A stretch of DNA of 64,000 nt from a virus. Position numbers and translations under genes: made by a program. Position 1 is the first letter of the stretch. Every line of letters starts with the position of its first letter. This document shows positions 2,742 to 49,354 of this stretch, piece by piece. Below the pieces are notes generated by a model that saw nothing but the letters and a program-made list of their open reading frames with translations, had not been told where the DNA came from and searched no databases. The DNA lies in the IMG/VR virus record IMGVR_UViG_3300035703_000021, positions 1 to 64,000 of that record; one strand, 5' to 3'.

Positions 2742-2924
2742 TCTCGCCCCTCCTCCGAACAGACACCCGATCAGGAACGCGATGAGGAAGCATTTCCAGA
2801 AGCCGAGCGTAACCCCAAACCACCCGAGCACGATGCCGATCAACCATGCCTGAAAGGCTAGAACACCAAACCCCAGAAGGAGGATGAGGGGAACGCCGAG
2901 AAGAATGAGGGTCTTACGGTTCAT
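2730..2924 (-). CDS. Small membrane protein
   Basis: Two or three hydrophobic segments. Confidence 0.7.
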   Translation of the reverse strand: MNRKTLILLGVPLILLLGFGVLAFQAWLIGIVLGWFGVTLGFWKCFLIAFLIGCLFGGGARATS

Positions 2925-3337: not shown

Positions 3338-3612
3338 TGCGAGAGCTCGTTGAGTTTTTCGTAGATTGCGTCGGTGAGCTGGCTGACCAGCTCGGTGAAG
3401 AGTTCGGGTGAGATGTCCTCACCGGAGAACCCGATCTCCTGCTCGATGACGGTGCTGGAGACCAGCACAGCCACCTCCTGGAGGTTATCTGGGTCGGAGA
3501 AGTAACTCTTCATCGCGGCGAAGGCTATGTTGCTCTTGGCCGATACTGACAGGGACATTGGAGACGGAGGGGATAACGTATCAGGGGAGATGATCGAAAA
3601 CGTGTTTGTCAT
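3334..3612 (-). CDS. Hypothetical protein
   Basis: ORF with ATGA overlaps. Confidence 0.65.
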   Translation of the reverse strand: MTNTFSIISPDTLSPPSPMSLSVSAKSNIAFAAMKSYFSDPDNLQEVAVLVSSTVIEQEIGFSGEDISPELFTELVSQLTDAIYEKLNELSQ

Positions 3613-4118
3613 AAGGATTTCTTATCCCAGCCACTGAGGCTCGATTTCTCATCCACTCTATACCGAGTTGGGATCGGATCGCCCATCCTCCAGCCACTTC
3701 CCCATCTGGCCAGGAAGAGGCTCAGCGGGCCGTCATTGACCGCCTCCGGCCTATCGCCTCTGACGAAGATACACCAGGAGTCGTAGGCGTACTGACCGCA
3801 TCCATAGAGGTCCCGTGGGTCGGCGCCCGGGGCGCTTCCATCCCAAGTGAGGTACCCGAGGGACATGCCCCTCAGCCTCTTGGCCTTCACATTCATGAAA
3901 CCAAACGGCTTCAGCAGCTCCTCGAGCGAAGAATCGGACTGACTCAATGCCTTGGCATCCGGCCACCTCCCGAATAGGTCGTAGAGCGTATGATCCCAGG
4001 CCACGGTGCGCCGGGACTGATTAAGCAGAATAGCGGCCACGAGGATATGCCAGGCCGTAGGCAGAGCCTCCTGGACGAGCCATCCGCCCCTCGGGTACGG
4101 ACCCTGCGCGCTAGTCAC
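3609..4118 (-). CDS. MBD4-like HhH-GPD DNA glycosylase
   Basis: LVQE..W.ILVAAILLNQ..ELLKPFG..KAK..LYGCGQYAYDSWCIF..ND parallels the MBD4 catalytic domain; GTG start at 4118 inferred. Confidence 0.85.
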   Translation of the reverse strand: MTSAQGPYPRGGWLVQEALPTAWHILVAAILLNQSRRTVAWDHTLYDLFGRWPDAKALSQSDSSLEELLKPFGFMNVKAKRLRGMSLGYLTWDGSAPGADPRDLYGCGQYAYDSWCIFVRGDRPEAVNDGPLSLFLARWGSGWRMGDPIPTRYRVDEKSSLSGWDKKSL

Positions 4119-4359
4119 GCAGCACCTCCTGGCACCTTCGGATCTGCTCGAGGGGCGTGTAGGTGAACCAGATGTGCAGCGCCTGGGGCACCGGGAGTTT
4201 CTCGGCGTAGAACTCGTAGAGGAGTTCGTCGGGCACACGCCAGGCGGTCGGGCCTCCCTCATCGTCCCAGGCGCGGATGTACGCCGACAGCGATGGATAG
4301 GAGCGGATGAACGGATCGTCGTCGATGAGCGCCTCGAGTACTTCGATGGGGTTCATCAC
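4111..4359 (-). CDS. Hypothetical protein
   Basis: ORF with phage-like codon usage. Confidence 0.65.
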   Translation of the reverse strand: MMNPIEVLEALIDDDPFIRSYPSLSAYIRAWDDEGGPTAWRVPDELLYEFYAEKLPVPQALHIWFTYTPLEQIRRCQEVLRD

Positions 4360-4977: not shown

Positions 4978-5203
4978 AATTCTGGTCGTTCCAGTGCCGG
5001 ATCACTCCGGCCACAATAAAGATGTTAGTTGCTAAGTACGTAGTGAAGATGAGGGTGCGGATCACCGCCACCCTATCCGACTCTCGGTCGCAGGGCGAAG
5101 CCTTCTCACCGAGCGCCAGAGCCCACAGACGCCAGCGCGTGTATGCAGGCCGCTTGGGCCTTTTGTGTTTCCGATCCGTGGAGGATGGTGAATGTCTTCC
5201 CAT
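4781..5203 (-). CDS. Cyanophage small membrane protein overlapping both neighbours
   Basis: WRLWALALGEKAS.CDRESD.VA.IRT..VAGVIRHWN core; boundaries uncertain. Confidence 0.5.
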   Translation of the reverse strand: MGRHSPSSTDRKHKRPKRPAYTRWRLWALALGEKASPCDRESDRVAVIRTLIFTTYLATNIFIVAGVIRHWNDQNYDQRDQSIGDARALRRDLHGTEAALGNVCLLLSGGRSGAYHISDAGDVRCRHAVLPQRATGGVGR

Positions 5204-5672
5204 TTCTTGCCAGATAGTCTTTCAGGAACTCATCGAACTCCGCCGCCTGCTCCGCGGTCTCGTAGCGGCCGCGGGGGTCGAACGCCCCGTCGCGGTGGAG
5301 GACGTAATCTAAGTACCTCACGGTGCCGTCGGAGGCGGATACGTTGTAGTAGGAGTTGGCGGCCGCGGTGACGTAACTCCCGGCCTCTCCGTTGTGCCAC
5401 TCCGCGTAGGCGCCGGCGAGCATGACAGGGGAGTCGGTGACGATGTAATCAACCTTGCCGTAGAGCAGGGACTCGTAGGCGGACTGCTTGCCGAGGAGGT
5501 ATATCTGGTCGGTGGGGCGGACCTGTTTGCCTGACCACGCCCAGAGTTTGACATACTCGCGGACTAACTCAACGTGAAGGCCCTGCATCTTCATGTGGGC
5601 GAAGAGCAAAGCCGCCACGGTGGATTTGCCGACCCCGCTCCCGCCGTAGAGGTTGATGACGGTGGTGGTCAT
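5106..5672 (-). CDS. P-loop kinase (NadR/AAA_28-like), possible nucleotide kinase
   Basis: INLYGGSGVGKST, ELVREYVK, IVTDSP, GRYET. Confidence 0.8.
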   Translation of the reverse strand: MTTTVINLYGGSGVGKSTVAALLFAHMKMQGLHVELVREYVKLWAWSGKQVRPTDQIYLLGKQSAYESLLYGKVDYIVTDSPVMLAGAYAEWHNGEAGSYVTAAANSYYNVSASDGTVRYLDYVLHRDGAFDPRGRYETAEQAAEFDEFLKDYLARNGKTFTILHGSETQKAQAACIHALASVGSGAR

Positions 5673-10112: not shown

Positions 10113-10814
10113 TCATGGGCTCGGGGCTTTTTGCTGTGGAGGTTCGATCTTCTCCACTACTTTAACTTGCTCTAACTCATCGAGAGCTTGGGCGATCGCA
10201 GGAAACTGCTCGTTGAAGATCTTGCGACAGGCAATGGCAATATCCATGTGCTCCTTCTGCGTGCCGTTAGCGCCCCGGAGGTCGATGTAGTGCATCCATG
10301 AGCGGAGAGTGCCGTGCATGTAGATCCGACTCGGGGAGTTCATCGGCAGGATCTTGCGAGCGCACTCCTTCGCCACTCCGGCCTCGAGCATATCATCGTA
10401 GAGCTCCTGGGCCTCGGAGAACAGCATCCGGGTCCGCTGCTGGAAGGCGATGACCAACTCTGGATCCAAGTCGTCCACGGAGTTCTGGCGGTTTTTGGTG
10501 TCCTGGCGGCGCAGTTCGGGGAGCTGGAGCTGACCCAGATCCTTCACATCGGCGTATCGCTGCGAGAACTCCTGAAATCCACAGAATGATTTGTGGCGAA
10601 TTATTTGAGCAGCAATATCCCTAGTAGTATTAATCTCAACGCACATAGTAGCCATTTCAAATGGACTCCAGTGTTTATGCTTGATAAGGTACTTAATCAA
10701 GCGAGGAGCAGTTTCATAATTACCCTGGTTTTTGGGTGCGGAGACCCGAGCCATATCGGTGATGAGATGTTCAGCTTCGGGGGTCACATGAATGAGCTTG
10801 ACTAATTGCGTCAT
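10113..10814 (-). CDS. thyX: Flavin-dependent thymidylate synthase
   Basis: ARVS, HWSPFE, RHKSF..QEFSQRY, KECAR, RSWMHY..R. Confidence 0.95.
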   Translation of the reverse strand: MTQLVKLIHVTPEAEHLITDMARVSAPKNQGNYETAPRLIKYLIKHKHWSPFEMATMCVEINTTRDIAAQIIRHKSFCGFQEFSQRYADVKDLGQLQLPELRRQDTKNRQNSVDDLDPELVIAFQQRTRMLFSEAQELYDDMLEAGVAKECARKILPMNSPSRIYMHGTLRSWMHYIDLRGANGTQKEHMDIAIACRKIFNEQFPAIAQALDELEQVKVVEKIEPPQQKAPSP

Positions 10815-18500: not shown

Positions 18501-18698
18501 TTATAATCCAAGGCTGAGCTGAATCGCCGGTGGAGATCCCCACTCTTTAGGTAGCAATTCCCCACCCACCACCTCGCGGGCGAAGATCTCCTTCATCTCC
18601 TGGTGCGGAAGTCCGCAATAGTCGGCGGCGCGGGGAACGTTCCAGCGTGCGGTATAGAGCATCTCAAGAGCCTCGCGAAGTCTGGCTCTGTCCCTCAT
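18501..18698 (-). CDS. Conserved cyanophage hypothetical protein
   Basis: EMLYTARWNVPRAADYCGL..EMK. Confidence 0.7.
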   Translation of the reverse strand: MRDRARLREALEMLYTARWNVPRAADYCGLPHQEMKEIFAREVVGGELLPKEWGSPPAIQLSLGL

Positions 18699-19975
18699 AC
18701 CTCGATGATGACTCCCCAGCCCGTGCCTGGGCCCTCAACCATCCATCTCTTATCGAAGTTGGCGTAGGAGTAGCGCTGATTAGCGCCATTGGTGGAGCCG
18801 TAGTACCCGCCGTTTGTAAGATCGAGCTCACCGTACGGATCATGAACGATGTACTGATCGGCGTTGTCATCGTAGCCGATGATGCACACCCAGTGCCCGC
18901 CGCCTTTGGGCGCTGATACGTGGCCGTGGTGGAGAATGCCCACGGGGACAGGAATGTTCCTGTCGATCTGGGCCTTAATATCGTCCCGGTCTAGATTATC
19001 CACCTTTTTCGCTTTGATTCCTAGGTCTCTAAGCGCGGCGATCTGGGCGGTAGGATTGGTGGTGTCTCCGTGGCGGAAGACGTAATTCTTCATGTAGTAG
19101 TCGTCTTCCTGCTCCGAGACTTTGATCGCGTCGGGTTTCACGTAGTCAGCCGCCATCGCGCAGGAGCTGGAGAAGCACATGCGGTGAGCGTGGGTGGTGG
19201 CGCTGTCGCGCTGGGGAAAGTACTTAGCAGTCAGGATGCGAGAGCACGGGGCACTTTCGTTGGGACGGGCGCTGCCGGTGTGGGACACCTGCCAGTGGGG
19301 GTTGTAGATGTACCACACTCCCGCCCCGTGGTCAAGAGTGACTTTGGAGTGTGAGCCTTCGTCGACGATGCTCGTGACGCCGTATCCTTTGCCCTTCTGC
19401 ACCTCCTTTCTCTGGTTGTAGGAGAGCTGGTAGGATTGGGCGGGCTCCTTTTTCAGGAGTGTGTCCTGCAGAGCGATGATCTGTGTTTTTACCATTTTGT
19501 CTTTGATAGAACCTTTGGACCATAGCGCACCTTCAGCGATACGGCGTCTTTTCAACCCGGCCTCAACATTAGATCCTGGGTTGCGGTAGAGGAGCAGGGC
19601 CTCGGGCACGAGGTCCCATTCCTTGTTACGTAGCCTGCGGCTGATAGTCTCGAAGCCGTCGGATCCGTAGAAGTTGGCGCCCAGGTTGTAGGCGAAGCTG
19701 AGAAGCGCTCCGACCTGCTCGTCGGACATGGAGCCAAAGTGCGGGATCTTCGCCAGTGCGGGCAGGTACGCTGTTTGGAGTTGATGCTCGAGGAGATCGT
19801 CGGCCTCCTCCTGTGTGATTGTCTCGCCAAGGGTGAAAGGTGACCCGTCCTTTTTGCGGGTGGATCCCCACCCCACGGTGTAGGGCTTGCCGCCAGAGAG
19901 CGGATCCGGATACGCTTTGAGGTGGCAACCCTCGAACCTCTTGATGAGGTCTACGCCTGATCTTGGTAGTTTCAT
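18695..19975 (-). CDS. Endolysin: GH24 lysozyme plus C39-like peptidase
   Basis: IKRFEG..AY.D..TVGWGST..GLKRRR; QRD..CFSSSCAM..GHW..HDPYG. Confidence 0.9.
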   Translation of the reverse strand: MKLPRSGVDLIKRFEGCHLKAYPDPLSGGKPYTVGWGSTRKKDGSPFTLGETITQEEADDLLEHQLQTAYLPALAKIPHFGSMSDEQVGALLSFAYNLGANFYGSDGFETISRRLRNKEWDLVPEALLLYRNPGSNVEAGLKRRRIAEGALWSKGSIKDKMVKTQIIALQDTLLKKEPAQSYQLSYNQRKEVQKGKGYGVTSIVDEGSHSKVTLDHGAGVWYIYNPHWQVSHTGSARPNESAPCSRILTAKYFPQRDSATTHAHRMCFSSSCAMAADYVKPDAIKVSEQEDDYYMKNYVFRHGDTTNPTAQIAALRDLGIKAKKVDNLDRDDIKAQIDRNIPVPVGILHHGHVSAPKGGGHWVCIIGYDDNADQYIVHDPYGELDLTNGGYYGSTNGANQRYSYANFDKRWMVEGPGTGWGVIIEV

Positions 19976-33370: not shown

Positions 33371-33430
33371 ACTATTATAGATCAGTTGAGGGGCCCGAGT
33401 CAAGAGCCTGTGACCAGTTGTGATAGTTGC
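33371..33430 (-). promoter_or_regulatory. Early/middle-type promoter
   Basis: AACTGGTCAC box and TATAAT. Confidence 0.55.
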
Positions 33431-34674
33431 TCCTTGATGGAGGTTCGGAGGTCCTTGAGGCCGCGGAGCAGGGCTCTCAGCTCCTTAACGCACTTCTTAT
33501 CGTCGGCCTCGCGACACTGCCGCAGGTTCTCCGTCTCCTCTTTTATCTTGGAGTGCGTCTCAGAATCCTTGAGAGCGAGGTCTTTGCACTTCTCAAAAAT
33601 CTCAATGTCGGAGACTTTCTCCATGCAAAGAGTCCTATTCCGGCCGGTGAGCTCGGGGTGGGAGTTCTCGCGTCTGGACTTAGAGGCTCTGGAGAAGAAA
33701 GAGGTCTTGTCCTCGTGCCATGTTGCAGGGATTTCCGGGAGGAAAAGTCCCTTTCGTAAGAGAAAGGTTCTTGCGGACAGCATGTGATCTGACCGGTTGG
33801 ATGGAGTTGTATTGTTAAGTACTTTGAGTAGGCGTTTGGTATCTTCTTCTGTAAAACGCCATGTAGTATCTTCGTCATAAAGATCAAAAAATCGTAGCGG
33901 AGTGCCAGGGTAGAGATTATCGCCGAGGTCACCGTACTCGACTTTGAAGTCGTAGCAGCCTCTGGCGGTGGTGATATGCATTCCCTCCTTGCGGAGATAG
34001 TAATCGCAGACCTCGCGTTCCGAGCGAAGCCTAGGCAACCAGGGGCCGGTGTTGGCCCAGATGATCTGATGCTCGTCGGAGACGAGGCCCTGCCAGTCAC
34101 CATCCAAAGTCCCGAGAAGGATCTGGCGCTTGGCGAGTTTGGAGTTCTTGCGAGCTTTGCGCTTGAGCCTGCACACGTGCCCGGCGATGTCATCCGCCTC
34201 AAAGAACTCCTTGGCGAAGTAGTGGAAGGTGGAGCCGGGGGAGTTGATGTACTTGTACCCCTCGTCCTGGATGAGGTCGAAGAACTCGGTCTTCTCACCC
34301 CGCCCGCCTTTGTACTCAGCCATGTCGAGCTTGTGGGCCTCGATATGCCGCCAGTACCCCTTGCCACTCACGGAGGCTTCGGAGAAGTCCGCTGGAAGTT
34401 TGCCCTTAAGGTCGTCTGCCACAAGCCCCACGAAGGGCATGGGGCTAAGCATATCCGGCCCTCGGTTGAGGCGATAGGCCCACATGGCCTTGATTATCTT
34501 GCGAAGCTCCTCCTCAGAGCCATTCGCCACGTCCACAGCCGCTTCCGCGTAATTATTGATAAAGTGCGCACAGACCTTGAAATCGATGACGTAGACCGGA
34601 CAATAAGGATCGAGGACGGGCTCAAATACATCTTCGAGTAGGGTGGCGGTGTGGTCGTATTCGGGTAGGGGCAT
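33400..34674 (-). CDS. 5'-3' exonuclease / RNase H (FEN-like)
   Basis: VID, YWRH..YKGGR, EADD, DGDW, GD.GDN. Confidence 0.85.
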   Translation of the reverse strand: MPLPEYDHTATLLEDVFEPVLDPYCPVYVIDFKVCAHFINNYAEAAVDVANGSEEELRKIIKAMWAYRLNRGPDMLSPMPFVGLVADDLKGKLPADFSEASVSGKGYWRHIEAHKLDMAEYKGGRGEKTEFFDLIQDEGYKYINSPGSTFHYFAKEFFEADDIAGHVCRLKRKARKNSKLAKRQILLGTLDGDWQGLVSDEHQIIWANTGPWLPRLRSEREVCDYYLRKEGMHITTARGCYDFKVEYGDLGDNLYPGTPLRFFDLYDEDTTWRFTEEDTKRLLKVLNNTTPSNRSDHMLSARTFLLRKGLFLPEIPATWHEDKTSFFSRASKSRRENSHPELTGRNRTLCMEKVSDIEIFEKCKDLALKDSETHSKIKEETENLRQCREADDKKCVKELRALLRGLKDLRTSIKEQLSQLVTGS

Positions 34675-35519
34675 CAGTTCGCTACTTCCATCTTCGTTGC
34701 CGGGTGGGAGACGTAGTCGATGAGCTCGAAGTCGGTCTCGGGATCGAGGTCGAAGATGGGCTTCTCGTTATTGATCCATACATCGCACTGGGCCATAGGT
34801 GAGTTGGTGATGATCGACTTGATGGCGAGTTCGTTCTGGGAGTAGATGTGGTTGTTGGCCGAGGCGAACATCACGAACCGGGGAACCAGGTTGGCGTCCT
34901 GAGCCATCTTGGTGACAAGAAGGCCGTAGCGGAACATATCCAACGGCACCCCCGTCGCCATGTCGTTACTCCGGGCATTGACCATCAGATCAAGATGAGC
35001 CCCATCGCTAGAAAAAGTGAGGTTAGGATGACAAGGAGGGCAGTGAAGAGAATCGTAAGCAGGATTAAAAGTCTGAAGCACCAGTTGGCGATTGGTCGGG
35101 TTGGTGCGGAGCTGCTCCCAGATCCACTTGAGTTGGTCGAATGGTTCGGCACGGAAGTTCTCCCACTGCATATTCTGCTCGGGGCAGACTTGAGGCCAGG
35201 CCCTCCAGCTCCGGCCATAAGCCCCGGCCAGGCGTCCTTCGGCGTCGGCGAGGAAGTCCCAGAAGTGCTTGGCGGGGCCTAGATTGGTTACCTGGTAGTC
35301 GCCATTGACATCCCACATGAACTCACGGAAGAGGTTACGGACGGGCATCTTGCGGAGGGTAAGGGCTGGGAAGCCGTTCCGCAGATCGACTTTGATGGTC
35401 TGGCCGAACATCTGCTTGTATCGCAGATTGTTCCGGCCTACAACCTCGGTGCCCTCATCGAGGATCTCTCTGGCGATTTTGATGTACTGGAGGTCGAAGG
35501 ACAGGCAGGGCTGTGGCAT
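34674..35519 (-). CDS. Thymidylate synthase homolog, predicted dCMP methyl/hydroxymethyltransferase
   Basis: GFP.LT.RK, YG..WR, PPCH, RSNDMATGVPLD (Asp at the Asn177 position), HIY. Confidence 0.85.
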   Translation of the reverse strand: MPQPCLSFDLQYIKIAREILDEGTEVVGRNNLRYKQMFGQTIKVDLRNGFPALTLRKMPVRNLFREFMWDVNGDYQVTNLGPAKHFWDFLADAEGRLAGAYGRSWRAWPQVCPEQNMQWENFRAEPFDQLKWIWEQLRTNPTNRQLVLQTFNPAYDSLHCPPCHPNLTFSSDGAHLDLMVNARSNDMATGVPLDMFRYGLLVTKMAQDANLVPRFVMFASANNHIYSQNELAIKSIITNSPMAQCDVWINNEKPIFDLDPETDFELIDYVSHPATKMEVAN

Positions 35520-35572
35520 GGCTCACTGGTATGGGTTATGAGACCATTTTACCACAGCCGGGCCGGATTTGT

Positions 35573-35812
35573 CTAGGGTCCGAAATACTTCTCAACGAGG
35601 AGGCGCTGGAGCTTGACGAACTTGCGGAGGGGGTAGTTGTATTCCATGGCCCACTGGAGCAGGGACCGACTCCCCATCTCGATGAGTTCCATCTCCGGGT
35701 CCTCGGAGATCACTTCCTCCTTGGCGACGAAGAACTTCTCTCCGTCGTGGGCTACTACGAGCCAGGGCACGTCCTTATCAAACCGGACGGGCTTTGCGAT
35801 TCTTTCGATCAT
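35573..35812 (-). CDS. Hypothetical protein
   Basis: Coupled ORF. Confidence 0.65.
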   Translation of the reverse strand: MIERIAKPVRFDKDVPWLVVAHDGEKFFVAKEEVISEDPEMELIEMGSRSLLQWAMEYNYPLRKFVKLQRLLVEKYFGP

Positions 35813-36285
35813 TTGTTGTTAGATTTCTTGTGGGCTTCAATGATGTCCTCGGTGGATCGGGCTTTGGATAGAGCTTGGACTTGAGCCCGTGATAGTCCGC
35901 CGAGGTCTGTTTGTTTGTACCCGGGGCCTTTCGGCGTGGCTGAGGCACCAGGGACGCACGTTTTACCAGCACGTGTCGTTCCTGCCGGGCAGCGCCCCAG
36001 CGCTTTCCCCTTATAGAATACCATGGAATCGGCGTAATTGGCACCCCCGCCTTCGACATTGGAGGCAGATGAGGCTCTCTTAGCTTTAAGAATCTCCATG
36101 TAGTCTGCCTGGGAGAGTTTTGTTAACTTATCTCCAAAGAATAGATTTACATCCTCTGGTGACATCTTCTTGATGTAGAAGTAGTTTAACAGACTTTCGT
36201 GCTTTGACATCACGGACTTGGGATCTTTTACCCCAGAATCCTTCAAATACTGAAATATGGAGTTTTTCCAGTCTTTTATTCCCAT
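35809..36285 (-). CDS. Putative internal head protein
   Basis: RCPAGTTRAGKTCVP motif. Confidence 0.65.
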   Translation of the reverse strand: MGIKDWKNSIFQYLKDSGVKDPKSVMSKHESLLNYFYIKKMSPEDVNLFFGDKLTKLSQADYMEILKAKRASSASNVEGGGANYADSMVFYKGKALGRCPAGTTRAGKTCVPGASATPKGPGYKQTDLGGLSRAQVQALSKARSTEDIIEAHKKSNNK

Positions 36286-38450
36286 TAGAATTGACTCCTG
36301 AGTATGTTGATTTCGGCATCGGAAACATTCCTTCCGATGAATTGAGAAAGTTTTTCAACTCCAGCTTTAAAGATACTCTCTGCATCTTGATTAGATGCGC
36401 CGCCTATCTTAGATAGGTATCTGTTTCCTGCCACCGTTCCTGATAGCAAAGAGGCCGCTAAAGTATTTTTGATATCTGATATCGCGTTATTTATTTCATC
36501 GAAGGATTGCCCTTCTTTGAGTTTGGAGGATATTCCTCCCCAAAGCAGATTTTGCATTGGAGAAGACATGCCTTTTTCGCTTGGGGCTGGTGCGTTGGGG
36601 TGAGAAGTTCCAAAATACGATATTCCAAGAATCTTAAGAGCCTGTTTTTTAACAAATTCTTGCACTTCCGCCGAGGATGGATCCAAAGAAGTTGCATTTG
36701 CTTCTCGAAGATCATTATCAAGAACGTTTTTTGAGATCATTCCGATGTCCTTCCGCATATCTCCAGTCAAACTACCTCTTGAATTATTAAGAGCACCCTC
36801 ACTCAATTTTTTACCAGTGCCAGCTTGCGATAATGCCACCGAGGTTCCAAATTGAGACTTATACGCGGCGCTTTGAGCGTCATTGTATAAGCGTTTTTGT
36901 TCCTCTGGATTCTCGGAAAGCTGATTAAGCCTTTCCTTCTCTCCTAATGCTGATCTATATAACCACAGGAAATTATTATCGCTTAGATGGGTGTTCAACC
37001 CTCCTCGCGTAAAGACTCCATTATCAGGATGATCCCCACCACCCCTAGCTGACGGAAGTACGTGGTCCAACGTTAAAGTAAAAGGACCCATAATAGTTGG
37101 GTCTTGGGTGTATCCATCTATTCCTCCTTGAACAAGGTATTTTTTTAGCATACCTTTACCGCGGGTTGAGGTAATTTTGTCAGCGTAAACTGGTATTTTT
37201 TTGCCATCTTGGATTTCGTATCCGCCAAATATGTTTTTCCTAGGACTTCCAACCTTATCGAATCTGCCTTTAAGAGTGGGAGGAAGAAGCGGATAAATAA
37301 TGTCAACTATTTGATCCTGCTCTTCGGGGGTTAAATCTTTGAACGAATCTAGCGGAGATCCGAAGGTCTTTCTCTCGGATTCCTGCAGGTGCTCCTGCAT
37401 TACATCGGAGGATAGGTTTTCCGCCAACGCCGCTCTTTTCTTTTCCCTCTGGTTATAGGCGGAGAGTTTTTGTTCGTATTCTGCTTTAACAGCTTCTTTC
37501 TGTTCTTTGGGGAGCCCTTTCAAATTAGGTTTCTGCGGAGGATGCTCCGATAGATCTTCCTCCGTTAATCCAGCAGCTAATAGGGCTTTCTTAATGGGGC
37601 CATTTAGTACGGACTCTAGTTCACTGTAATTTCTAAACGCTCTCTGCTCCCCTTCTTCACTTGGATCTACCTGCGATACCGATCCATCTGAATTTAATTT
37701 GTATTCTAGGCTAAATTGTTTTACGTCCTGAGCGGTTTTGCCTTCTTTTACAGTATCTCCAGATATTCTTTTTCCGTCTCCGTCTACCCACAGAGACATG
37801 AATTCTAACACGCTAGTTGCACTATTTTTAAGTTTTGGATTACTGCCTAACTTTGATTCTACGTAGTTTCTAATGGTTGTTCTTTCTTTTCCTCTACCGA
37901 CCATTTGTGTGTCTATATACATAGACGGGTTACGATTACGATCTTTTAGAAAAGCTCCTCTCTGGGAGTGGGCTTGATTTAAAGTAGTAGATCCAGTTGC
38001 TTCTCCGCTGGGCTTTGGCCGCTTTTCTGATTTAGGTTCTGGTTTTGGTTTGGGTTGCTCTTCTTGCTTAGGTTGAGATTGCGTTTCTTCAGTTGCTCCT
38101 TTTCTATCGAGAGCCTTTGACATTCCCTCCTGGATCTGCGCCCCGGTTCTTTTTTGAGGAAGAGTTCTTACATTACCTTTTGGCTTAGGAGCCGTGCTAC
38201 TTTGAACGCACTGATCCCCTTGGGCATGGAATCCAGGATCGCATTTATGGACCATAGCTGCCTGCTTCCTGTTGCCATGAGCCGGCTGTTGCTTTAGTTG
38301 CCCAACAGCAAAGCTAACTGCCTCAGAAAACCCAACAACATCCCTACCCTCAAGAGCGGGCATCCTAGCCTCACCCTCAAACAGCTGTTCCGCTACCCAT
38401 TCAGTTTTATCCGCGATTCCCCAATCCTGAGGGGCATAATCCCCGAGCAT
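36285..38450 (-). CDS. Large late protein with HNH-like domain
   Basis: AT-rich; QGGIDGYT..LDHVLP..GG.DHPDN..N. Confidence 0.7.
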   Translation of the reverse strand: MLGDYAPQDWGIADKTEWVAEQLFEGEARMPALEGRDVVGFSEAVSFAVGQLKQQPAHGNRKQAAMVHKCDPGFHAQGDQCVQSSTAPKPKGNVRTLPQKRTGAQIQEGMSKALDRKGATEETQSQPKQEEQPKPKPEPKSEKRPKPSGEATGSTTLNQAHSQRGAFLKDRNRNPSMYIDTQMVGRGKERTTIRNYVESKLGSNPKLKNSATSVLEFMSLWVDGDGKRISGDTVKEGKTAQDVKQFSLEYKLNSDGSVSQVDPSEEGEQRAFRNYSELESVLNGPIKKALLAAGLTEEDLSEHPPQKPNLKGLPKEQKEAVKAEYEQKLSAYNQREKKRAALAENLSSDVMQEHLQESERKTFGSPLDSFKDLTPEEQDQIVDIIYPLLPPTLKGRFDKVGSPRKNIFGGYEIQDGKKIPVYADKITSTRGKGMLKKYLVQGGIDGYTQDPTIMGPFTLTLDHVLPSARGGGDHPDNGVFTRGGLNTHLSDNNFLWLYRSALGEKERLNQLSENPEEQKRLYNDAQSAAYKSQFGTSVALSQAGTGKKLSEGALNNSRGSLTGDMRKDIGMISKNVLDNDLREANATSLDPSSAEVQEFVKKQALKILGISYFGTSHPNAPAPSEKGMSSPMQNLLWGGISSKLKEGQSFDEINNAISDIKNTLAASLLSGTVAGNRYLSKIGGASNQDAESIFKAGVEKLSQFIGRNVSDAEINILRSQF

Positions 38451-38523: not shown

Positions 38524-39723
38524 ATGTCATCATACACCCACGGCCACATCATCCCCCTGGTAGGAGGGAGCGTGGTCGGCACGACCCTGGCCCTGGAGAA
38601 GGATCCGGAGTGGATCGCGTCCTGGAGCGACTCATTCGGCGCCAATGATCAGTACTGCCTGAAGTACTTCGACAAGACCCCCTTCCACAATCTCGATGAG
38701 GGGAACTACCCCACAAAGTACGTCGATATTGTTACGTCCCTGCCGCCCTGCGCCGGCCTCTCGATGGCCAATACCACTTCCGGCGAGAAGGTCAACAACC
38801 CACGTGGTTGCTCGGCGCCCAGCAACATGCACATGTACCACGCAGCTGAGTTCGCCATGTCCAAGATCAAGCCTAAGGCCATGATGGTGGAGAATGCGCC
38901 GGCCCTCTACTCGAAGATGGGAGAGGAGTTCGCGGAGCGGATCAACTCACTGGCCGCGGAGCACGACTACTCCATGAGCCTGGTGAAGACCACCTCGATC
39001 AATCACGGGGTGCCCCAGGAGCGTACTCGCTCGTTCTTCTTCCTGTGGCAGGGGGACAAAGTCCCGGTGCTCTCTCCTGTGAAGCGTGACTTCGAGCCCT
39101 TCCACAAGTTCCTGAAAGCTGGTGGATTCGCTAAATCCGAGCCGGTCAACTCCAAGGGAACACCTAGCGCCGATCCGCTGTGGCAATTTATCGAGGAGAA
39201 GTACGCCGGCTACACCAAGCAGGACATTCTCTCCAAGGTGGCCTCGAAGCGCATGACGTCAGTCTGGAACGTTATCTACGAGTCGGGTTGGTTGGAGGAG
39301 GCCGCGAGAGTGGTCAAGGATGAGAAGGCCAATCGCTGGCTCAACTACACACTTGAGAAGAAGCGCGCCGGCAAGAACATCATGGACGGTAGTATGAAAC
39401 TGGCTTGGTATAGAACGCAGAGTCTGATGTGGAAGTCACTTCCGTATCTTATGCATCCCTACGAGGATCGTTGGCTAACAGTGGCCGAGGGCCTCGCGCT
39501 GATGGGGTTCCCGAAGGAGTACGCCGAGAAGGTCTCTATTCCCACCAAGCACAGCAATGTTATTGCGCAGAACGTGCCCGCGTGCACAGCCCGCGACTGG
39601 ATCCTGGAGGTGGAGGAGGCGCTCAAGGGCAATCGCGAGTGGGTGGAAAGGCCTAATGGCGCGATCCTGAGACAGAACAATACCACCTCCACTAAGCCCA
39701 TGGAGCCGATCTGGGCGCTCTGA
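38524..39723 (+). CDS. Atypical DNA cytosine-C5 methyltransferase-like protein
   Basis: PPCAGLS (IV), ENAP (VI), Q.R.R (VIII), RWLT..E (IX), AQNVP (X); motif I is IPLVGG. Confidence 0.85.
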   Translation: MSSYTHGHIIPLVGGSVVGTTLALEKDPEWIASWSDSFGANDQYCLKYFDKTPFHNLDEGNYPTKYVDIVTSLPPCAGLSMANTTSGEKVNNPRGCSAPSNMHMYHAAEFAMSKIKPKAMMVENAPALYSKMGEEFAERINSLAAEHDYSMSLVKTTSINHGVPQERTRSFFFLWQGDKVPVLSPVKRDFEPFHKFLKAGGFAKSEPVNSKGTPSADPLWQFIEEKYAGYTKQDILSKVASKRMTSVWNVIYESGWLEEAARVVKDEKANRWLNYTLEKKRAGKNIMDGSMKLAWYRTQSLMWKSLPYLMHPYEDRWLTVAEGLALMGFPKEYAEKVSIPTKHSNVIAQNVPACTARDWILEVEEALKGNREWVERPNGAILRQNNTTSTKPMEPIWAL

Positions 39724-40602: not shown

Positions 40603-41100
40603 TTAACCGAATGTGTACTGAAGCCACTCGGGAGAGCCTGAGTCAATAAGATTGAGCAGGAATCTGTTAGTGGGAACAAAAGGCTTTCTAGCGAGCTTCA
40701 TTCCGGTCTGCTCGAGAAGGGTGTCTCCCTTCTTCGTGTTGCACGTTGAGCAGGCTACCACCATATTCTCCCAGGTATCCTGACCTCCTCGGCTTCTGGG
40801 GATCACATGGTCGATGGTCAGGCGCCTTGTCGATCCGCAGTACTGGCACTTGTGCCCGTCTCGCTTGTATATAAGAGTCCGGGATGGTTTGACGGAATTG
40901 ATCTTGGTAAAAGGAATCCTTATGTACTCCACGAGCCGGATGACTTTTGCCGACACCACCGCCGCCTTCTCCTTGAGAAGCAGGATGATTGCTCTCTTCC
41001 AACTCGTGATATGAAGGGGCTCGTAGGACGCGTTGAGGACTAATACTTGTGTATTAGGCCTGATCGCTTTTACGTTTTCCGGTACCATCGCAGACTCCAC
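40603..41100 (-). CDS. HNH endonuclease (McrA-like)
   Basis: VLVLNASYEP, RD..CQYCG, TIDHVIPRSRGG, CSTCN.KKG. Confidence 0.9.
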   Translation of the reverse strand: MESAMVPENVKAIRPNTQVLVLNASYEPLHITSWKRAIILLLKEKAAVVSAKVIRLVEYIRIPFTKINSVKPSRTLIYKRDGHKCQYCGSTRRLTIDHVIPRSRGGQDTWENMVVACSTCNTKKGDTLLEQTGMKLARKPFVPTNRFLLNLIDSGSPEWLQYTFG

Positions 41101-41240: not shown

Positions 41241-41738
41241 TTAGAACGATGCTGATTCGCAGTTGCCCTGGAGCTCCTCTGCTGGGTTCGCGGTGACGGG
41301 AGCATCACCGTTCACATTGTGATCCGGCCGGACCTGATTGTAGGCTTGTTTCTCCGCGGCGACGCGAGCGAACTCCTCGCCCGTCACCCCACCATAGGCG
41401 AGGACGGCACGATGAAATAGCAGTACGTCATACATCTCAGCGATGAATTCCTTGCGAAGTTCCGCGTTATCCATGAAACTACGCTCGCCGTTCTTCCAGC
41501 TCCGACGAGGGACGTAGACGCGGGCTTCGATCATCTCCTCTCCCATGTGACCGAAGTGCTCGATCATTTTCTGGTAGCGGAAGGAGAGTCCGTCGTCGTG
41601 GCGGGGAAGGCCAAGCTCGACCATCTTGTCGATGGCGACTAGATCATCGGGACCCATTTCGCCGACCTTGGACGCGTACTTCTGCTGTGCACCGAAGCCA
41701 TCATTGATGAATTGCACGTAATCGAAGGAAGCAGTCAT
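41241..41738 (-). CDS. All-alpha dCTP/dUTP pyrophosphatase (T4 gp56-like)
   Basis: EEMIE..WK..EMYD..F..G..EE..K..N..R. Confidence 0.7.
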   Translation of the reverse strand: MTASFDYVQFINDGFGAQQKYASKVGEMGPDDLVAIDKMVELGLPRHDDGLSFRYQKMIEHFGHMGEEMIEARVYVPRRSWKNGERSFMDNAELRKEFIAEMYDVLLFHRAVLAYGGVTGEEFARVAAEKQAYNQVRPDHNVNGDAPVTANPAEELQGNCESASF

Positions 41739-41792: not shown

Positions 41793-43706
41793 TCAACCCT
41801 CGCAGGCCACGCATTCCCCGTAGGTCTTCTCCTTAGATCCGAAGTGCTCCGATAGGTGCTTGTACCCGCCGATGTACCGGTCATTAAGCCAGATCTGGGG
41901 CACCGTTTTCCAGTGCCATTCGGAGTCGGGAACGTCGGCTCTGTCAGTCTCGTTGATCGTCCAGCCCTGGCTCTTGAGCAGGGATTTAGCCATGGAGCAG
42001 TAGGGGCACTCCTGCTTGGTGATGATCCTGGCGATCTTCTGCTGTCCCAACGGTCTCTTCTTAACAAGCAGAGACGAGCTCTTCAGGTAATAGAGGGACT
42101 TAAGCCCAGCTTTCCAGGCGCTCAGGTGGAGCTTGAAGAGGTACTCGGGTGTGGATTCTGGGTCGACGAAGAGGTTGATGGATTGGCCCTGGCAGACGTA
42201 CTTCTGGCGGTCAGCGGCTTGCCTGATAATCTCGAACTGGTCGATCTCGCGGGCGGTCTTGAATACCTCCTTGGTATGAGGATCAAGAAACTCGAGGTGC
42301 TGAACCGACCCTCTGAACTCTAGAATCGCCTCCCAGGTCTCCTCGGTGTTGCGGCCGATCCGCTCTAGGTGCTCCACCAGGTACCTGTTCTTGCGAACAA
42401 AGGTCCCCTTGGCCTGCCTAGCAACGTAGTAGTTAGCGTCGATAGGCTCGATGCCTTCGCTCCCCGCTCCGCAGATGGCGGAGTTGGACTTGGTTGGGGC
42501 GATGGCCATGAGATGGGTGTGGCGAAGGCCGGTACCCTGGCACCACTCGGGCTCGCCGTAAGCGGCAGCCATCTCACGCGAGGCCTTCTGCGCCTTCTCC
42601 TTGATGAACCTGTGCATGTCGGTGTTGAGCTGGCGAGCCTCGTCGGAGGCGAATGGGAGCCCCTTCGACTGGTAGAGGGCGTGAAGGCCCATGGTACCCA
42701 GGCCGAGTGCCCTGGACTTGCGGGCGAAACGTACGGCTCTGCCTAGGGAGGTGATGCGATCGGCCTTGTGGCAGAACTCCTCGACAACCGCGTCGAGAAG
42801 GTACACCGCTAGCTCAGGGGCAGTCTTGCCAGTTGCAGGACCTTTCCAGTCCTTCCACTCCTCCCAGCGGGAGAGATTGAGCGATGAGAGAACGCAGACG
42901 AAGGTGTGGTTCTCGTCGGTGTGAAGGAAGATCTCGGAGCAGAGATTGCTTAGCTTAACGCTAAGCCCGCGCTGAAGGTAGCACTCTGGATTGGCTTTGT
43001 TGGCGTTGTCGGTGAAGATGATGTAGGGAGACCCTGACACCAGGCGGGCCTTAAGCACCTCGCCGAACAACTTCTGCTTCTCCCGGTCTCCGGCTAGCAG
43101 CTCCTCCACCCACTCGTTGGAGACGGTGATGGCTATGTTGCTGTCGATGAAGTCACGAGGGTCACCCTGCGAGTGGTCCTTGGAGCGAAGCACTTCAGGC
43201 AGGTCCGGGTGGTCGATAGGGAGATATAGGGCAAAACTGCCCCGCCTCACCCCACCCTGGGAGACTACCGCGGCGCACTGATCGAACTGCCTCATCCAGG
43301 GCACCACTCCGGTGCTCTTGCCCCCGCTCGAGATGGGAGCCCCGGCCGGGCGGATGTCCCCGAAGTAAGTCCCCACTCCGCCGCCATGCTGCGAGAGCGC
43401 AGCCGACTCCTTGAGGTGGGAGTAGATGGAAGGAACGGAGTCGGAGATGTGGTTCGAGTAGCAGCTGATTGGCAGGCCGCGTGACGTGCCGAAGTTGCTG
43501 GCCACCGGCGTCGCTAAACCGAGAAACCCGCGCCACAGCATCTCGAAGATGTCCCCGGAGAGTTCGGGGTAGTTGAGTAGCTTGGCGGCCTGATTGGCCA
43601 CCCGCTCGTACATACCCCTAGGCGTCTCGCCCTGATAGAGATAACCCCTTGAGAGGGTGTCGATGGCTTCTTTTGACATCCACGAGGGGACTTGGGGTTC
43701 GGACAT
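41793..43706 (-). CDS. nrdA: Ribonucleotide reductase class Ia alpha subunit with fused glutaredoxin
   Basis: ATP..NFG, ISC, QGG.RRG, SNLCSE, APT, QSIN, KSLYY; CPYC..TVPQI..IGGY; terminal CVACEG. Confidence 0.95.
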   Translation of the reverse strand: MSEPQVPSWMSKEAIDTLSRGYLYQGETPRGMYERVANQAAKLLNYPELSGDIFEMLWRGFLGLATPVASNFGTSRGLPISCYSNHISDSVPSIYSHLKESAALSQHGGGVGTYFGDIRPAGAPISSGGKSTGVVPWMRQFDQCAAVVSQGGVRRGSFALYLPIDHPDLPEVLRSKDHSQGDPRDFIDSNIAITVSNEWVEELLAGDREKQKLFGEVLKARLVSGSPYIIFTDNANKANPECYLQRGLSVKLSNLCSEIFLHTDENHTFVCVLSSLNLSRWEEWKDWKGPATGKTAPELAVYLLDAVVEEFCHKADRITSLGRAVRFARKSRALGLGTMGLHALYQSKGLPFASDEARQLNTDMHRFIKEKAQKASREMAAAYGEPEWCQGTGLRHTHLMAIAPTKSNSAICGAGSEGIEPIDANYYVARQAKGTFVRKNRYLVEHLERIGRNTEETWEAILEFRGSVQHLEFLDPHTKEVFKTAREIDQFEIIRQAADRQKYVCQGQSINLFVDPESTPEYLFKLHLSAWKAGLKSLYYLKSSSLLVKKRPLGQQKIARIITKQECPYCSMAKSLLKSQGWTINETDRADVPDSEWHWKTVPQIWLNDRYIGGYKHLSEHFGSKEKTYGECVACEG

Positions 43707-43796: not shown

Positions 43797-44213
43797 CTAT
43801 TTTTTCTTTTTGATCAGCCCGTCATCGTGGGCCTGCTGTACGTTCTCTGAGCGCGTACCCCACTCCAGATTGGAGATGGCGTTGTTGGTTCCGTCGTTGT
43901 CCTTGTGGAGGATGACGATGTGCTCGCCCTTGGGCTTGGGAGGGCCGAATAGCTCCATCACCATCTGGTGCAGGGGCGGCTCCTCGCGTTTGCCATTCCA
44001 AGTGAGGTTGACGCGCTGGTGTTTGCGATCGTCGTCGCGGGGCTTGCGGTTCTCGCTGTCGCCTTTACGACGCACTTTGCCACTACTACTCACCTCGTAG
44101 GGAGAGTCCTTCCACTGCTTCCAGGTTTCCTTGGAGTCGGAAAAGCTCCGGCCACCCTGATCCCTTCCTTTGACCTTCCAGCCCTCGGGTACGTTCATGC
44201 TCAGATCGTCCAC
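43797..44213 (-). CDS. NUMOD4-HNH endonuclease with N-terminal VPEGW
   Basis: YEVSSSGKVR, HQMV..F, HKDND..NN..NLEW..EN. Confidence 0.85.
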   Translation of the reverse strand: MDDLSMNVPEGWKVKGRDQGGRSFSDSKETWKQWKDSPYEVSSSGKVRRKGDSENRKPRDDDRKHQRVNLTWNGKREEPPLHQMVMELFGPPKPKGEHIVILHKDNDGTNNAISNLEWGTRSENVQQAHDDGLIKKKK

Positions 44214-44516: not shown

Positions 44517-45527
44517 TTAAGCGTAGGAGAGGCAAGACTCTAAATCCAAAGTTGAAAGATCCACACTCATATAATCCTGAGTGGGCTTGGCTACGTAATT
44601 GTCACCAGATTTGCTTTGAGCGAAGAAATCAGAGCTACTTGCCCCTTTGATCATAGGGTCAAACCAAGCGCTGATGGACTTTGCCCGTGAGAGCTCCTCG
44701 GTGGACAGATGGAAGATCTGCTGAAGCCCGAGCGTGATAAGCCGTTCATTAGCGCGGTTGGTTATGTAAGCTTTCAACTCGTCAGCGTCAATCGAGCTAA
44801 TATATGCAGAGTTAAAAATGTGGTCAATAAAAGCGAACTCCTTGCCCACCACAAGGCGGAAGCCCTCGTAGATCGCTTGCTCCTCGGCCTCAGTAAGCCC
44901 CGTCTCCTCGACAAGGCGGCGGAAAAGCCCGCACCCAGCTTCCGAGTGAGTCTGCTCGTCGATTGACGACCACGAGATGATCTGCGCGAGGCCTTTGTAA
45001 CGTCCATCTCTGTTAAAGCTTAGTAGTACTGCGAAGGAGCTGAATAGCGACACGCCCTCTCCGGCGCCCGAGAACACCGCGAGGGAGACTTTGTCCTGGT
45101 ACTTCTGGAAGAAGGTATCGATCTTGGAGCAGGCGACAGGGTCATTGATGAACTCCTCGTACTCCTTCAGGCCGAGGACATCATTCAGGTAGGAGTAAGC
45201 CGCGGCGTGGATCGTCTCGAAGAACGAGAAGGCGCGGGCCATGGCTTGGATCTCGGGCTTGGGGAAGATCCTGCAGACCTCATCCGCCCAGTAACAACCA
45301 ATCCCCAGCTCAGCGCTTACAAAGCCCTTTAGAATCCCGGCTATAACCGCTCTTTCGTCCGGTGTTGAGTTGAATTGCCAGTCGCGAAGATCTCCCTCCA
45401 TGGCAACCTCCTGGTGGCGCCATACGCTGGCCACGGTGCGCTCGTAGTAATCGTAGAACTCCGGAAAGTCGAATCCGTCGTCCTTCTTGAAGATCATTCT
45501 GTTGTGCTCGAGAATGCTGTTGCTCAT
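44517..45527 (-). CDS. nrdB: Ribonucleotide reductase class Ia beta subunit
   Basis: W..E, E.IH..AY, EGVSLFSSF, DE..H. Confidence 0.95.
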   Translation of the reverse strand: MSNSILEHNRMIFKKDDGFDFPEFYDYYERTVASVWRHQEVAMEGDLRDWQFNSTPDERAVIAGILKGFVSAELGIGCYWADEVCRIFPKPEIQAMARAFSFFETIHAAAYSYLNDVLGLKEYEEFINDPVACSKIDTFFQKYQDKVSLAVFSGAGEGVSLFSSFAVLLSFNRDGRYKGLAQIISWSSIDEQTHSEAGCGLFRRLVEETGLTEAEEQAIYEGFRLVVGKEFAFIDHIFNSAYISSIDADELKAYITNRANERLITLGLQQIFHLSTEELSRAKSISAWFDPMIKGASSSDFFAQSKSGDNYVAKPTQDYMSVDLSTLDLESCLSYA

Positions 45528-48364: not shown

Positions 48365-49354
48365 TTATGTAAAGGATCCTACAGCAGTTGTGGATCCTTT
48401 TACCGTTCCGCCACTATTTGTAACAGAAACCAATAAGTTGCTGGAGAGCCTAACTACAGCAGCGCCTCCTAGCCCTTTATTTCCGCCGCTTCCTAAGCTC
48501 TCCGATTCCCCGCCAAGAATCCCAGAAGTCCTTGCCGGGCAGCCATTATTTCCGTTCTCTCCCCAGTCCCCGCCATTTCCTCCATATCCTGCTCCGCCTC
48601 CCTGCCCGCCGCCGTTACAATTATTTCCAGAGGCTCTACAGAAGTTAGAAGGACCGTTTCCGCCGTCCGCGCCGTCTTGATTGTTGTACCCGGCTCCTTT
48701 TCCTCCCGCCCCTCCGCTAGCGGAGCAGGCATAGTTGCCAATAATAGCATTCTGGTTGAATGAGTACGCACCTCCTCCGCCTCCGCCGCCTCCACCGCCT
48801 TGAACCTGTCCACTGGATTCCACAAGTAACTCACATGAGTATTGCACTCCTAATGCTGGAGATCCCGCCTGTCCAGTCCCACCATTAGCCGAGCCTCCAT
48901 TCCCCCCTCTACCCCAAAGTCTGCCACTAGAAGTGACAATATACTTTAGAAGGGTTGTTGATGAGTCCCAGGTTCCGGTTTTTAATGCTGCCGCTGTGGT
49001 TGATTCAGTGGCGCCAATAACGCTTCTGACCACGTGATATACTTTTTTAGTCTGACTGCTATCTCCCCTACTAGGGCGGGGCTTAAATCCTCCGATTACA
49101 ACAGCAGAACTATCGAATTTGGATCCTGAATCTACATTTGTTTCTTCCGCTGAATAATCCACTACGCAGTTAAGAGTTTTACCTCTAAGCTGGGAGAAGG
49201 ATATCGTCCCAGAGCTAGGAATACCTTCATCCAGAGGCCAGTTCCTGCCCGCGACACTCTGACTAACTCTGTACGCTCCCAGATTCTTGCCTGGCGGAGC
49301 GCCAAACTCCGCCGTTATATTGCTCCAGCTAATCTGACCGGTAGGTGTAGTCAT
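48365..49354 (-). CDS. Gly-rich tail fibre adhesin-like protein
   Basis: GQISW..EFG, IPSSGTISFSQLRG, polyglycine loops. Confidence 0.75.
   Translation of the reverse strand: MTTPTGQISWSNITAEFGAPPGKNLGAYRVSQSVAGRNWPLDEGIPSSGTISFSQLRGKTLNCVVDYSAEETNVDSGSKFDSSAVVIGGFKPRPSRGDSSQTKKVYHVVRSVIGATESTTAAALKTGTWDSSTTLLKYIVTSSGRLWGRGGNGGSANGGTGQAGSPALGVQYSCELLVESSGQVQGGGGGGGGGGAYSFNQNAIIGNYACSASGGAGGKGAGYNNQDGADGGNGPSNFCRASGNNCNGGGQGGGAGYGGNGGDWGENGNNGCPARTSGILGGESESLGSGGNKGLGGAAVVRLSSNLLVSVTNSGGTVKGSTTAVGSFT

Follow-up and report, generated by a model that had tools for sequence, protein, structure and literature searches.

A thymidylate synthase homologue predicted to modify dCMP in a freshwater TIM5-like cyanophage

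The ThyA homologue, its family and its genome

The window analysed here comprises the first 64 kb of a single virus record of 138,862 bases in IMG/VR (IMGVR_UViG_3300035703_000021), and our subject is a gene at 34674–35519 on its minus strand that encodes a ThyA-family protein of 281 residues, which we predict to be a one-carbon transferase acting on C5 of deoxycytidine monophosphate (dCMP). The gene lies within a long run of minus-strand genes, with primase and virion genes around it, and its stop codon overlaps the start of a flap-endonuclease homologue by one base. The protein matches the Thymidylat_synt profile (PF00303) at an E value of 3e-55 over profile positions 2–265 of 266, and a phmmer search of the PDB aligned it over its whole length with thymidylate synthases of solved structure (best match 7ta9 at 1.4e-35; 120 distinct sequences at ≤0.01). 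By blastp it is 29% identical to E. coli ThyA over the full length (5e-39), 27% identical to the Xp12 enzyme over 229 residues (8e-21) and 20% identical to T4 gp42 (1e-4).

In the phmmer alignment against the PDB, RSNDMATGVPLD of this open reading frame (ORF) lies over RSCDVFLGLPFN of E. coli ThyA. Cys163 of the PCH motif (codon at 35031–35033, on the minus strand like the other codons given here) is aligned to the E. coli nucleophile Cys146 and is followed by His164 (E. coli His147), and Asp194 (codon GAT, 34938–34940) takes the position of E. coli Asn177, the pyrimidine specificity residue, in the same column as an Asp of T4 gp42 (from NC_000866). Three residues before the catalytic Cys (position -3), the place of E. 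coli Leu143 is taken by Cys160 (35040–35042), which is specific to the clade described below. The C-terminal tail has 10 residues and ends where E. coli ThyA ends. An earlier reading made from the letters alone (the sequence-only reading) had claimed the Asp at the Asn177 position, the intact catalytic PCH and the matching Asp of gp42, and the alignments bear out all three.

A word-indexed search returned 165 proteins at E ≤1e-20 among 450 candidates, and residues were counted, in E. coli numbering, in the 120 listed (94 of them close and 26 in a group at 40% identity). The catalytic Cys and the following His are invariant in 120/120, and Asp stands at position 177 in 117/120, the other 3 being fragments that end before that column, so that on these counts Asp194 is neither a one-off nor a sequencing error. 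Trp83 is replaced by Leu in 93/94 close members and 26/26 of the 40%-identity group, Leu143 by Cys in 88/94 and 25/26, and Phe176 by Leu, with Ala165 and Asn168 likewise fixed. Glu58, Trp80, Tyr94, Arg166, Ser167 and Asp169 are kept (Asp169 in 92/94 close and 25/26 distant members, the remaining rows being gaps), as are His207 and Tyr209, which bind the deoxyribose, and the substrate should therefore be a deoxyribonucleotide. A tail of 9–10 residues after a conserved His, which is the length found in thymidylate synthases, is present in 116 of 122 rows.

An exhaustive search of 1.84 billion cluster representatives gave 7,711 relatives at E ≤0.001, of which only 38 reached ≤1e-30. A FastTree phylogeny of 175 rows was built from 21 family members (taken from the first 120), 143 newly returned representatives (those of P0121–P0267 with at least 230 residues) and 11 reference or characterised enzymes including the query. 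The query falls in a clade of 40 rows (SH-like support 96) that has Asp177 in 39 rows and a gap in one, and Cys143 in 31; the Xp12 enzyme, T4 gp42 and the deoxyuridine monophosphate (dUMP) hydroxymethylases fall outside it. Across all 175 rows, Cys143 occurs in 30/57 rows with Asp177, in 0/117 rows with Asn177 and in 1 row gapped at 177, and the combination of Leu143 with Asn177 occurs in 110. This uncharacterised clade goes under the annotation of thymidylate synthase and matches neither of the characterised subfamilies. One distant family member (P0126, 447 residues) is a ThyA homologue fused to NUMOD4 and HNH_3 homing-endonuclease domains.

The contig is that of a freshwater TIM5-like cyanomyovirus. 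The GC content of the record is 53%, its ends show no overlap and CheckV puts its completeness at 86%; its proteins correspond one by one to those of S-TIM61, S-TIM5, S-TIM54 and S-TIM66 (genus Aurunvirus), and counterparts of the helicase, gyrase and psbA genes are missing from it, that whole end of the genome being absent. Among 50,697 isolate phage records, close relatives of the ThyA homologue are limited to five S-TIM records, whose "ThyA" orthologues are 80.5–81.6% identical over 99% of the protein (81.6% for S-TIM61 and S-TIM5), and the next match in that set is 33% identical. A megablast of 20 kb against isolate phages gave just two matches, of 33–34 bases each. The S-TIM orthologues (for example UYE97116.1 in OP053361.1) carry Asp177, Cys at -3 and the rest of the signature and have the same flanks, with the flap endonuclease downstream and a C5-methyltransferase gene about 3 kb upstream; they differ in coming from marine phages of ~41% GC, against 53% GC in a freshwater and subsurface setting here, and in being annotated plainly as ThyA or thymidylate synthase in GenBank. 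Published TIM5-like phages are described as marine and of about 41% GC (PMC10087341). Metagenomes containing the present DNA are from freshwater and the subsurface (20 runs of 9 studies, all as assembled contigs). Relatives of the ThyA homologue and of the genes beside it (window positions 33400–36300) are covered at roughly 88–92% identity by contigs from two freshwater metatranscriptome libraries, both of one study; carry-over of DNA is possible in these libraries, and the coverage does not prove transcription.

Three uncultured relatives are used below. G001 is a complete genome of 159 kb with terminal repeats (100% by CheckV), and G003 is a freshwater relative with ~85% nucleotide identity to this contig and a ThyA homologue that is 95% identical. 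G006 belongs to a GC-rich sister group (group B) of uncultured phages of 55–66% GC that have the polymerase and several virion genes in common with TIM5-like phages, and whose ThyA homologue is about 41% identical to that of the window with the same active-site signature; it has 149.9 kb with direct terminal repeats at its ends and is rated 69% complete by CheckV despite these repeats. Gene content was compared by tblastn among four genomes (this record, also called G000, G001, G006 and S-TIM61), and with E. coli ThyA as the query each of them yielded one ThyA-family gene. A group-B gene between the polymerase and the ThyA homologue was considered as a deaminase and rejected, being a P-loop AAA_14 protein.

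Published product rules and characterised enzymes

Thymidylate synthase homologues that modify dCMP before replication are a known kind of system. The exchange of Asn177 for Asp is described as a switch from dUMP to dCMP in PMC13326640 (NAR 2026) and PMC8670742 (eLife 2021), citing Hardy and Nalivaika 1992 and Liu and Santi 1992, and according to these papers the single mutation N229D (L. casei) or N177D (E. coli) turns thymidylate synthase into a dCMP methylase. In the MetaGPA study, positions 177 and 147 are the two that differ most between contigs whose cytosine is modified and those whose cytosine is not (PMC8670742). A 2024 preprint searched IMG/VR for contigs that carry both a deaminase and an Asp177 thymidylate synthase homologue (10.1101/2024.12.05.627091), and since the Asn177-to-Asp rule had thus already been applied to this database, the novelty that the sequence-only reading saw in the gene combination was overstated.

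For the product, the stated rule relates a bulky Leu143 to methyl and an Asp or Glu at 143 to hydroxymethyl, with position 143 listed among 12 residues within 6 Å of the C5 of dUMP, and names Asp169-to-Asn as the mark of flavin-dependent 5-hydroxy-dCMP synthases (PMC13326640). A study in IUCrJ 2019, based on the ternary complex of the T4 enzyme, gives as the hydroxymethylation signature the Ser-x-Tyr geometry combined with an Asp at -3 of the Cys, names the loss of the tail as a major structural difference of the T4 enzyme from thymidylate synthase, and assigns to Leu143 and a neighbouring Trp the control of solvent access for hydride transfer (PMC6400193).

We aligned nine characterised enzymes with the query. 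The methyl formers have Leu (E. coli ThyA and RB69 td) or Asn (Xp12) at -3 and keep the tail in 3/3 cases, and the hydroxymethyl or hydroxy formers have Asp (T4 gp42, SPO1 gp29, M6, CBA120 and phiW-14) or Glu (RB69 gp48) at -3 and have lost both the thymidylate synthase tail and His147 in 6/6 cases. The query shares with dCMP-modifying homologues in general the fold, the catalytic Cys and Asp177. It departs from canonical thymidylate synthases, in which Asn177 binds O4 and N3-H of uracil, in having Asp194 for Asn177 and Cys160 and a Leu for Leu143 and Trp83. Where T4-type enzymes have Ser/Thr-x-Tyr before the general-base Tyr, it has Gly-Ala-Tyr, and the residue just before that Tyr is Ser in many family members, depending on the alignment. 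Like the Xp12 type it has Asp177, a non-acidic residue at -3 and a tail, and it lies outside the Xp12/PaMx74 clade and shows no linkage to a deaminase and dihydrofolate reductase. The Asn169 of 5-hydroxy-dCMP synthases is replaced by Asp in the query and its family. Judged by aligned residues, the published product rules do not assign the query's clade.

Each of the characterised systems is like the present one in part. The Xp12 enzyme, a dCMP 5-methyltransferase from a phage whose DNA is fully 5-methylcytosine, shares the fold, Asp177, Asp169, the non-acidic -3 and the tail, but belongs to a separate clade at 27% identity, with Asn at -3 and with His147 and Trp83 replaced by Pro and Phe; in its genome the enzyme stands beside a dCMP deaminase with dihydrofolate reductase two genes away and no second thymidylate synthase, whereas here there is ThyX and no dihydrofolate reductase was found. 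T4 gp42 shares Asp177 and the RSND motif, and T4 likewise has a separate deoxythymidine monophosphate (dTMP) synthase, a dCMP deaminase, a nucleoside triphosphate (NTP) pyrophosphatase and an alpha-glucosyltransferase (AGT), of which the last has a homologue in relatives of our phage; unlike the query, gp42 (20% identity at 1e-4) has Asp145 at -3 and Thr in place of His147, follows the Ser-x-Tyr pattern and lacks the tail. The engineered N177D and N229D enzymes of E. coli and L. casei, as described, resemble the query in a thymidylate-synthase-like site with Asn exchanged for Asp, His147 and the tail, but keep Leu143 and Trp83, where the natural clade has fixed Cys143, Leu83, Ala165, Asn168 and Leu176. 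The 5-hydroxy-dCMP synthases RB69 gp48 and DLP3 gp80 (PMC13326640) share the fold and Asp177, whereas their Asp169-to-Asn exchange is absent here and they have Glu at -3 and no tail.

Nucleotide-supply and DNA-modification genes

A separate route to dTMP is provided by ThyX, a flavin-dependent thymidylate synthase encoded at 10113–10814 on the minus strand (PF02511 at 4.2e-43 over the full profile), which is kept in S-TIM61, G001 and G006; the sequence-only reading was right in seeing a thyX distinct from the ThyA homologue. A dCMP deaminase lies at contig positions 117516–117926, outside the window and ~82 kb from the ThyA homologue, and is 79% identical to the S-TIM61 deaminase; the structure of the S-TIM5 deaminase has been solved (10.1101/2024.12.05.627091). 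The large and small subunits of ribonucleotide reductase are encoded on the minus strand at 41793–43706 (NrdA, 70% identical to that of S-TIM61) and 44517–45527 (NrdB, 78% identical), and HNH endonuclease genes at 40603–41100 and 43797–44213, both on the minus strand, flank nrdA and nrdB as they do in S-TIM61.

Next to nrdA, an ORF at 41241–41738 (minus strand, 165 residues) is a candidate all-alpha NTP pyrophosphohydrolase of the MazG-like kind, on the grounds of its motif, its model and its structural alignment. It has an invariant EExxE...ExxExxD motif, belongs to a large and strongly conserved family (387 proteins at E ≤0.001) and has an atlas feature score of 0.92 to MazG/dUTPase_2 clusters, and its AlphaFold2 model is all-alpha (mean predicted local distance difference test score 88.8). 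By VIA-align the top five rows are MazG-family proteins, the best being the mouse deoxycytidine triphosphate (dCTP) pyrophosphatase RS21-C6 (Z 7.6, root-mean-square deviation 4.1, 110/113 residues), a Z within the range that helical bundles reach by chance. Foldseek gave a best E of 0.3 with no row at ≤0.001, Pfam and NCBIfam gave no match, and a PDB profile search gave nothing relevant. The sequence-only reading had called this ORF gp56-like, and its comparisons with T4 gp56 were not significant (phmmer E 4.9, hhalign probability 4%); we infer that it acts as a dCTPase. Of the four companions that the sequence-only reading had listed for the ThyA homologue (a dCTPase, a kinase, an atypical C5-methyltransferase and an MBD4-like glycosylase), the MazG-like protein is the sole one present in all four genomes, at 56–70% identity in S-TIM61, G001 and G006. 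Its identity to the G006 protein (L094:9542-10030) is 70%, next to 41% for the ThyA homologue and 38% for ThyX, which suggests unusually strong constraint or recent exchange.

The other three companions also exist as ORFs. An MBD4-like HhH-GPD DNA glycosylase at 3609–4262 (minus strand) is a candidate for repairing modified cytosine after its deamination: by phmmer, MBD4 takes all of the first 15 places among PDB sequences (6e-9 to 2e-8, with endonuclease III at 6e-3) and the alignment includes the Asp of the HhH-GPD motif, while the Pfam HhH-GPD score of 19.8 bits is below the cut-off. The ORF at 38524–39723 on the plus strand resembles C5-cytosine methyltransferases (PF00145 at 1e-18) and has a degenerate motif I; its TIGR00675 score of 47.8 bits is below the cut-off of 100.65, the PPC, ENA, QERTR and QNVP motifs are readable, and no PDB match was found at 0.001. 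A P-loop kinase-like ORF at 5106–5672 (minus strand) is a candidate deoxynucleoside monophosphate kinase (PF13521 AAA_28 at 2e-12; PHROG 2107 "thymidylate kinase" at 1.6e-10) without a PDB match.

By tblastn, the kinase has no match in S-TIM61, G001 or G006, the glycosylase has a 65% identical homologue in G006 and none in S-TIM61 or G001, and the methyltransferase is present in S-TIM61 and G001 and absent from G006. The patchy presence of the kinase, glycosylase and methyltransferase among relatives argues against a fixed pathway unit and weakens the single dispersed pathway proposed by the sequence-only reading. The G006 genome has the ThyA homologue, ThyX, the dCMP deaminase, NrdAB, the MazG-like protein and the MBD4-like glycosylase, and no AGT, C5-methyltransferase or kinase homologue was found in it. 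The conserved core is the ThyA homologue, ThyX, the dCMP deaminase and the MazG-like protein, and AGT, the C5-methyltransferase, the glycosylase and the kinase are lineage-specific additions.

The AGT homologue is found in relatives. An S-TIM61 protein passes the Pfam profile of T4 DNA alpha-glucosyltransferase (PF11440, 37 bits against a cut-off of 25), and T4 AGT is the only significant PDB match of the homologues in G001 (1.8e-11) and G003 (1.5e-9); in all three genomes the gene adjoins a gyrase gene (gyrase A-like in G003). The dCMP deaminase and this AGT homologue are more telling than the companions listed earlier. In G001 the AGT-like gene is directly followed by a gene for UDP-galactopyranose mutase (L028:7222-8346; PF03275, 2e-71), with no counterpart by tblastn in S-TIM61, this record or G006, and galactofuranose may be present on G001 DNA.

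Several other genes of the window, all on the minus strand, were assigned in passing. A protein of 331 residues at 20967–21962 matches ADP-ribosyltransferase families (PF01129 at 9e-6, PF03496 at 3e-5), and one of 426 residues at 18695–19975 has both a phage lysozyme domain (1.6e-20) and a papain-fold peptidase domain of the C39-like kind (1.3e-9) and is 77% identical to a G001 protein, with no tblastn match in S-TIM61. At 48365–49354, adjoining a tail-fibre gene of 1686 residues, a protein of 329 residues matches the T-even tail-fibre adhesin GP38 (PF05268, 30.1 bits against a cut-off of 25). The left contig end, which has few counterparts in S-TIM61, holds a calcineurin-like metallophosphoesterase at 211–1020 (PF00149, 1.5e-8) and an ORF at 2921–3337 with a match to PHROG 11227 "protease" (2.9e-49).

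Substrate, product and significance

From its active-site residues, the ThyA homologue very likely takes dCMP as its substrate, and the sequence suggests that the phage probably builds modified cytosine into its DNA. The proposal of the sequence-only reading that 5-methyl- or 5-hydroxymethyl-dCMP is made is supported as far as sequence logic and gene context go. As to which of the two is formed, the markers within the enzyme point to methyl and the genome context points to hydroxymethyl; 5-hydroxymethyl-dCMP is the best explanation, and one that we hold to be evenly balanced between right and wrong.

If 5-hydroxymethyl-dCMP is the product, the enzyme would bind dCMP instead of dUMP and transfer the methylene carbon of 5,10-methylene-tetrahydrofolate to C5 via Cys163, with Asp194 serving in the recognition and protonation of cytosine N3 and N4. 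The exocyclic methylene intermediate would then react with water to give 5-hydroxymethyl-dCMP and tetrahydrofolate would be released, so that no dihydrofolate reductase would be needed, and the exchanges of Leu143 for Cys and Trp83 for Leu would open the active site to this end. The product would be phosphorylated and incorporated by the phage polymerase, and hydroxymethylcytosine would be glycosylated on DNA by the T4 alpha-glucosyltransferase homologue, whose gene belongs to the stretch of genome missing here. The MazG-like pyrophosphatase would deplete dCTP, and the dCMP deaminase and ThyX would supply dTMP separately. Such a scheme would parallel the T4 layout (gp42, gp56, cd, td and agt) in an unrelated cyanophage lineage.

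In favour of hydroxymethylation, three relatives carry the AGT homologue, and almost all family members have smaller residues in place of both Leu143 and Trp83. A search of 8 records for Tet_JBP, run without a positive control, gave no match; because of this and of the single ThyA-family gene per genome, nothing other than the ThyA homologue is seen in the two complete TIM5-like genomes that could provide an AGT-type enzyme with a pyrimidine bearing a hydroxyl group. Dihydrofolate reductase was found in 0/12 records, against 10/14 control genomes that were positive. The MBD4-like glycosylase fits either product, because MBD4 removes T and 5-hydroxymethyluracil opposite G.

A number of points weigh against hydroxymethylation, and the missing control of the Tet_JBP search is one of them. 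The T4-type acidic residue at -3 is replaced by Cys160, and we know of no cysteine-based activation of water. The tail that T4 gp42 has lost is present, and its retention suggests that closure of the active site matters; with His147 and a tail of thymidylate synthase length, the query resembles the methyl formers in this respect. The T4 mutant D145N is reported as inactive (PMC6400193), and 5/7 tested Asp177 homologues, as well as the Xp12 enzyme, are reported to make 5-methyl-dCMP (10.1101/2024.12.05.627091). No AGT homologue turned up on this contig, which is 86% complete and misses the region that carries the gene in relatives, or in any of 5 group-B records, 4 of them fragments, the fifth being the repeat-bounded G006, whose enzyme has the signature of the query. 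Some carriers of the ThyA homologue thus lie outside the argument from AGT.

Many of these points would be accounted for if the enzyme were a dCMP methylase that forms 5-methyl-dCMP by hydride transfer from tetrahydrofolate, as Xp12 does, and so yields DNA with 5-methylcytosine, a reading that we regard as possible at well under an even chance. The sequence is nearest to canonical thymidylate synthases, with E. coli ThyA as the closest of the three enzymes compared by blastp; His147, Asp169, Trp80, Tyr94 and the tail are kept with no acidic residue at -3, and Xp12 makes its product with a non-bulky Asn there. The published single mutants and the majority of tested homologues also gave the methylated nucleotide, G006 has the enzyme and no AGT, and an MBD4-like glycosylase would fit the repair of T:G mismatches after deamination of 5-methylcytosine. 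A methylase would, however, leave the AGT homologue conserved in S-TIM61, G001 and G003 without a hydroxyl acceptor, unless this transferase acts elsewhere or on 5-hydroxymethylcytosine from an unrecognised route, for which no TET/JBP protein was seen in the 8 records. The reaction would produce dihydrofolate, yet no reductase appears in the 12 records; Leu143 and Trp83, described as guards of hydride transfer (PMC6400193), are both replaced; and a C5-methyltransferase would be redundant in a genome that is fully 5-methylcytosine.

Since neither published product rule fits the clade, the enzyme could also use a chemistry of its own. Its sequence would allow a third mechanistic class, in which the tail and His147 are kept, Cys160 activates water (as in a hydroxymethylase with a tail) or supplies reducing equivalents and no dihydrofolate is produced, and we consider this unlikely; the broader proposition, that Cys160 (forming CPPC with Cys163) is the base activating water, or supplies reducing equivalents for a methyl product with the folate left unoxidised, or that a different C5 adduct is formed, is likewise unlikely, and conjectural. 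It draws on the occurrence of Cys143 with Asp177 and never with Asn177 in the rows compared, on the near invariance of this Cys in the clade down to about 40% identity, on the closeness of the position to the C5 of dUMP (PMC13326640), and on the lack of a dihydrofolate reductase together with a glutaredoxin annotated in S-TIM61. Against it, PPCH is ordinary in thymidylate synthases, so that only one residue has changed, and a small hydrophobic Cys may just repack the site around the cytosine amino group. An enzyme of the third class would suit ThyX-based cyanobacterial hosts and phages without dihydrofolate reductase, and if that reading is true, TIM5-like phages and the GC-rich sister group would have fully modified, partly glycosylated cytosine.

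That the gene encodes an ordinary thymidylate synthase, turning dUMP into dTMP redundantly with ThyX in a phage with unmodified DNA, is very improbable: the TIGR03284 score (137.9 bits against a cut-off of 108.35), the GenBank names of the S-TIM5 orthologues and the presence of all catalytic residues except Asn177 speak for it, but Asp177 is invariant in the clade, discriminates against dUMP in mutants (PMC13326640, PMC8670742) and is associated with modified-cytosine contigs (PMC8670742), and ThyX is already present, as are the MazG-like enzyme, the AGT homologue of relatives and the MBD4-like glycosylase.

The clade stands outside both published product rules and could reveal a different steering of the exocyclic methylene intermediate. 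The literature searched, which left the original 2012 description of S-TIM5 outside its range, gave no report of modified cytosine in TIM5-like phages. These cyanophages are described as a distinct lineage that all photic-zone samples analysed contained, though its abundance was persistently low (PMC10087341). If their cytosine is modified, this bears on the naming of such genes in databases, where the present one passes the thymidylate synthase equivalog cut-off, on the recovery of these phages by enzyme- and PCR-based methods, and on their evasion of the restriction and CRISPR defences of Synechococcus.

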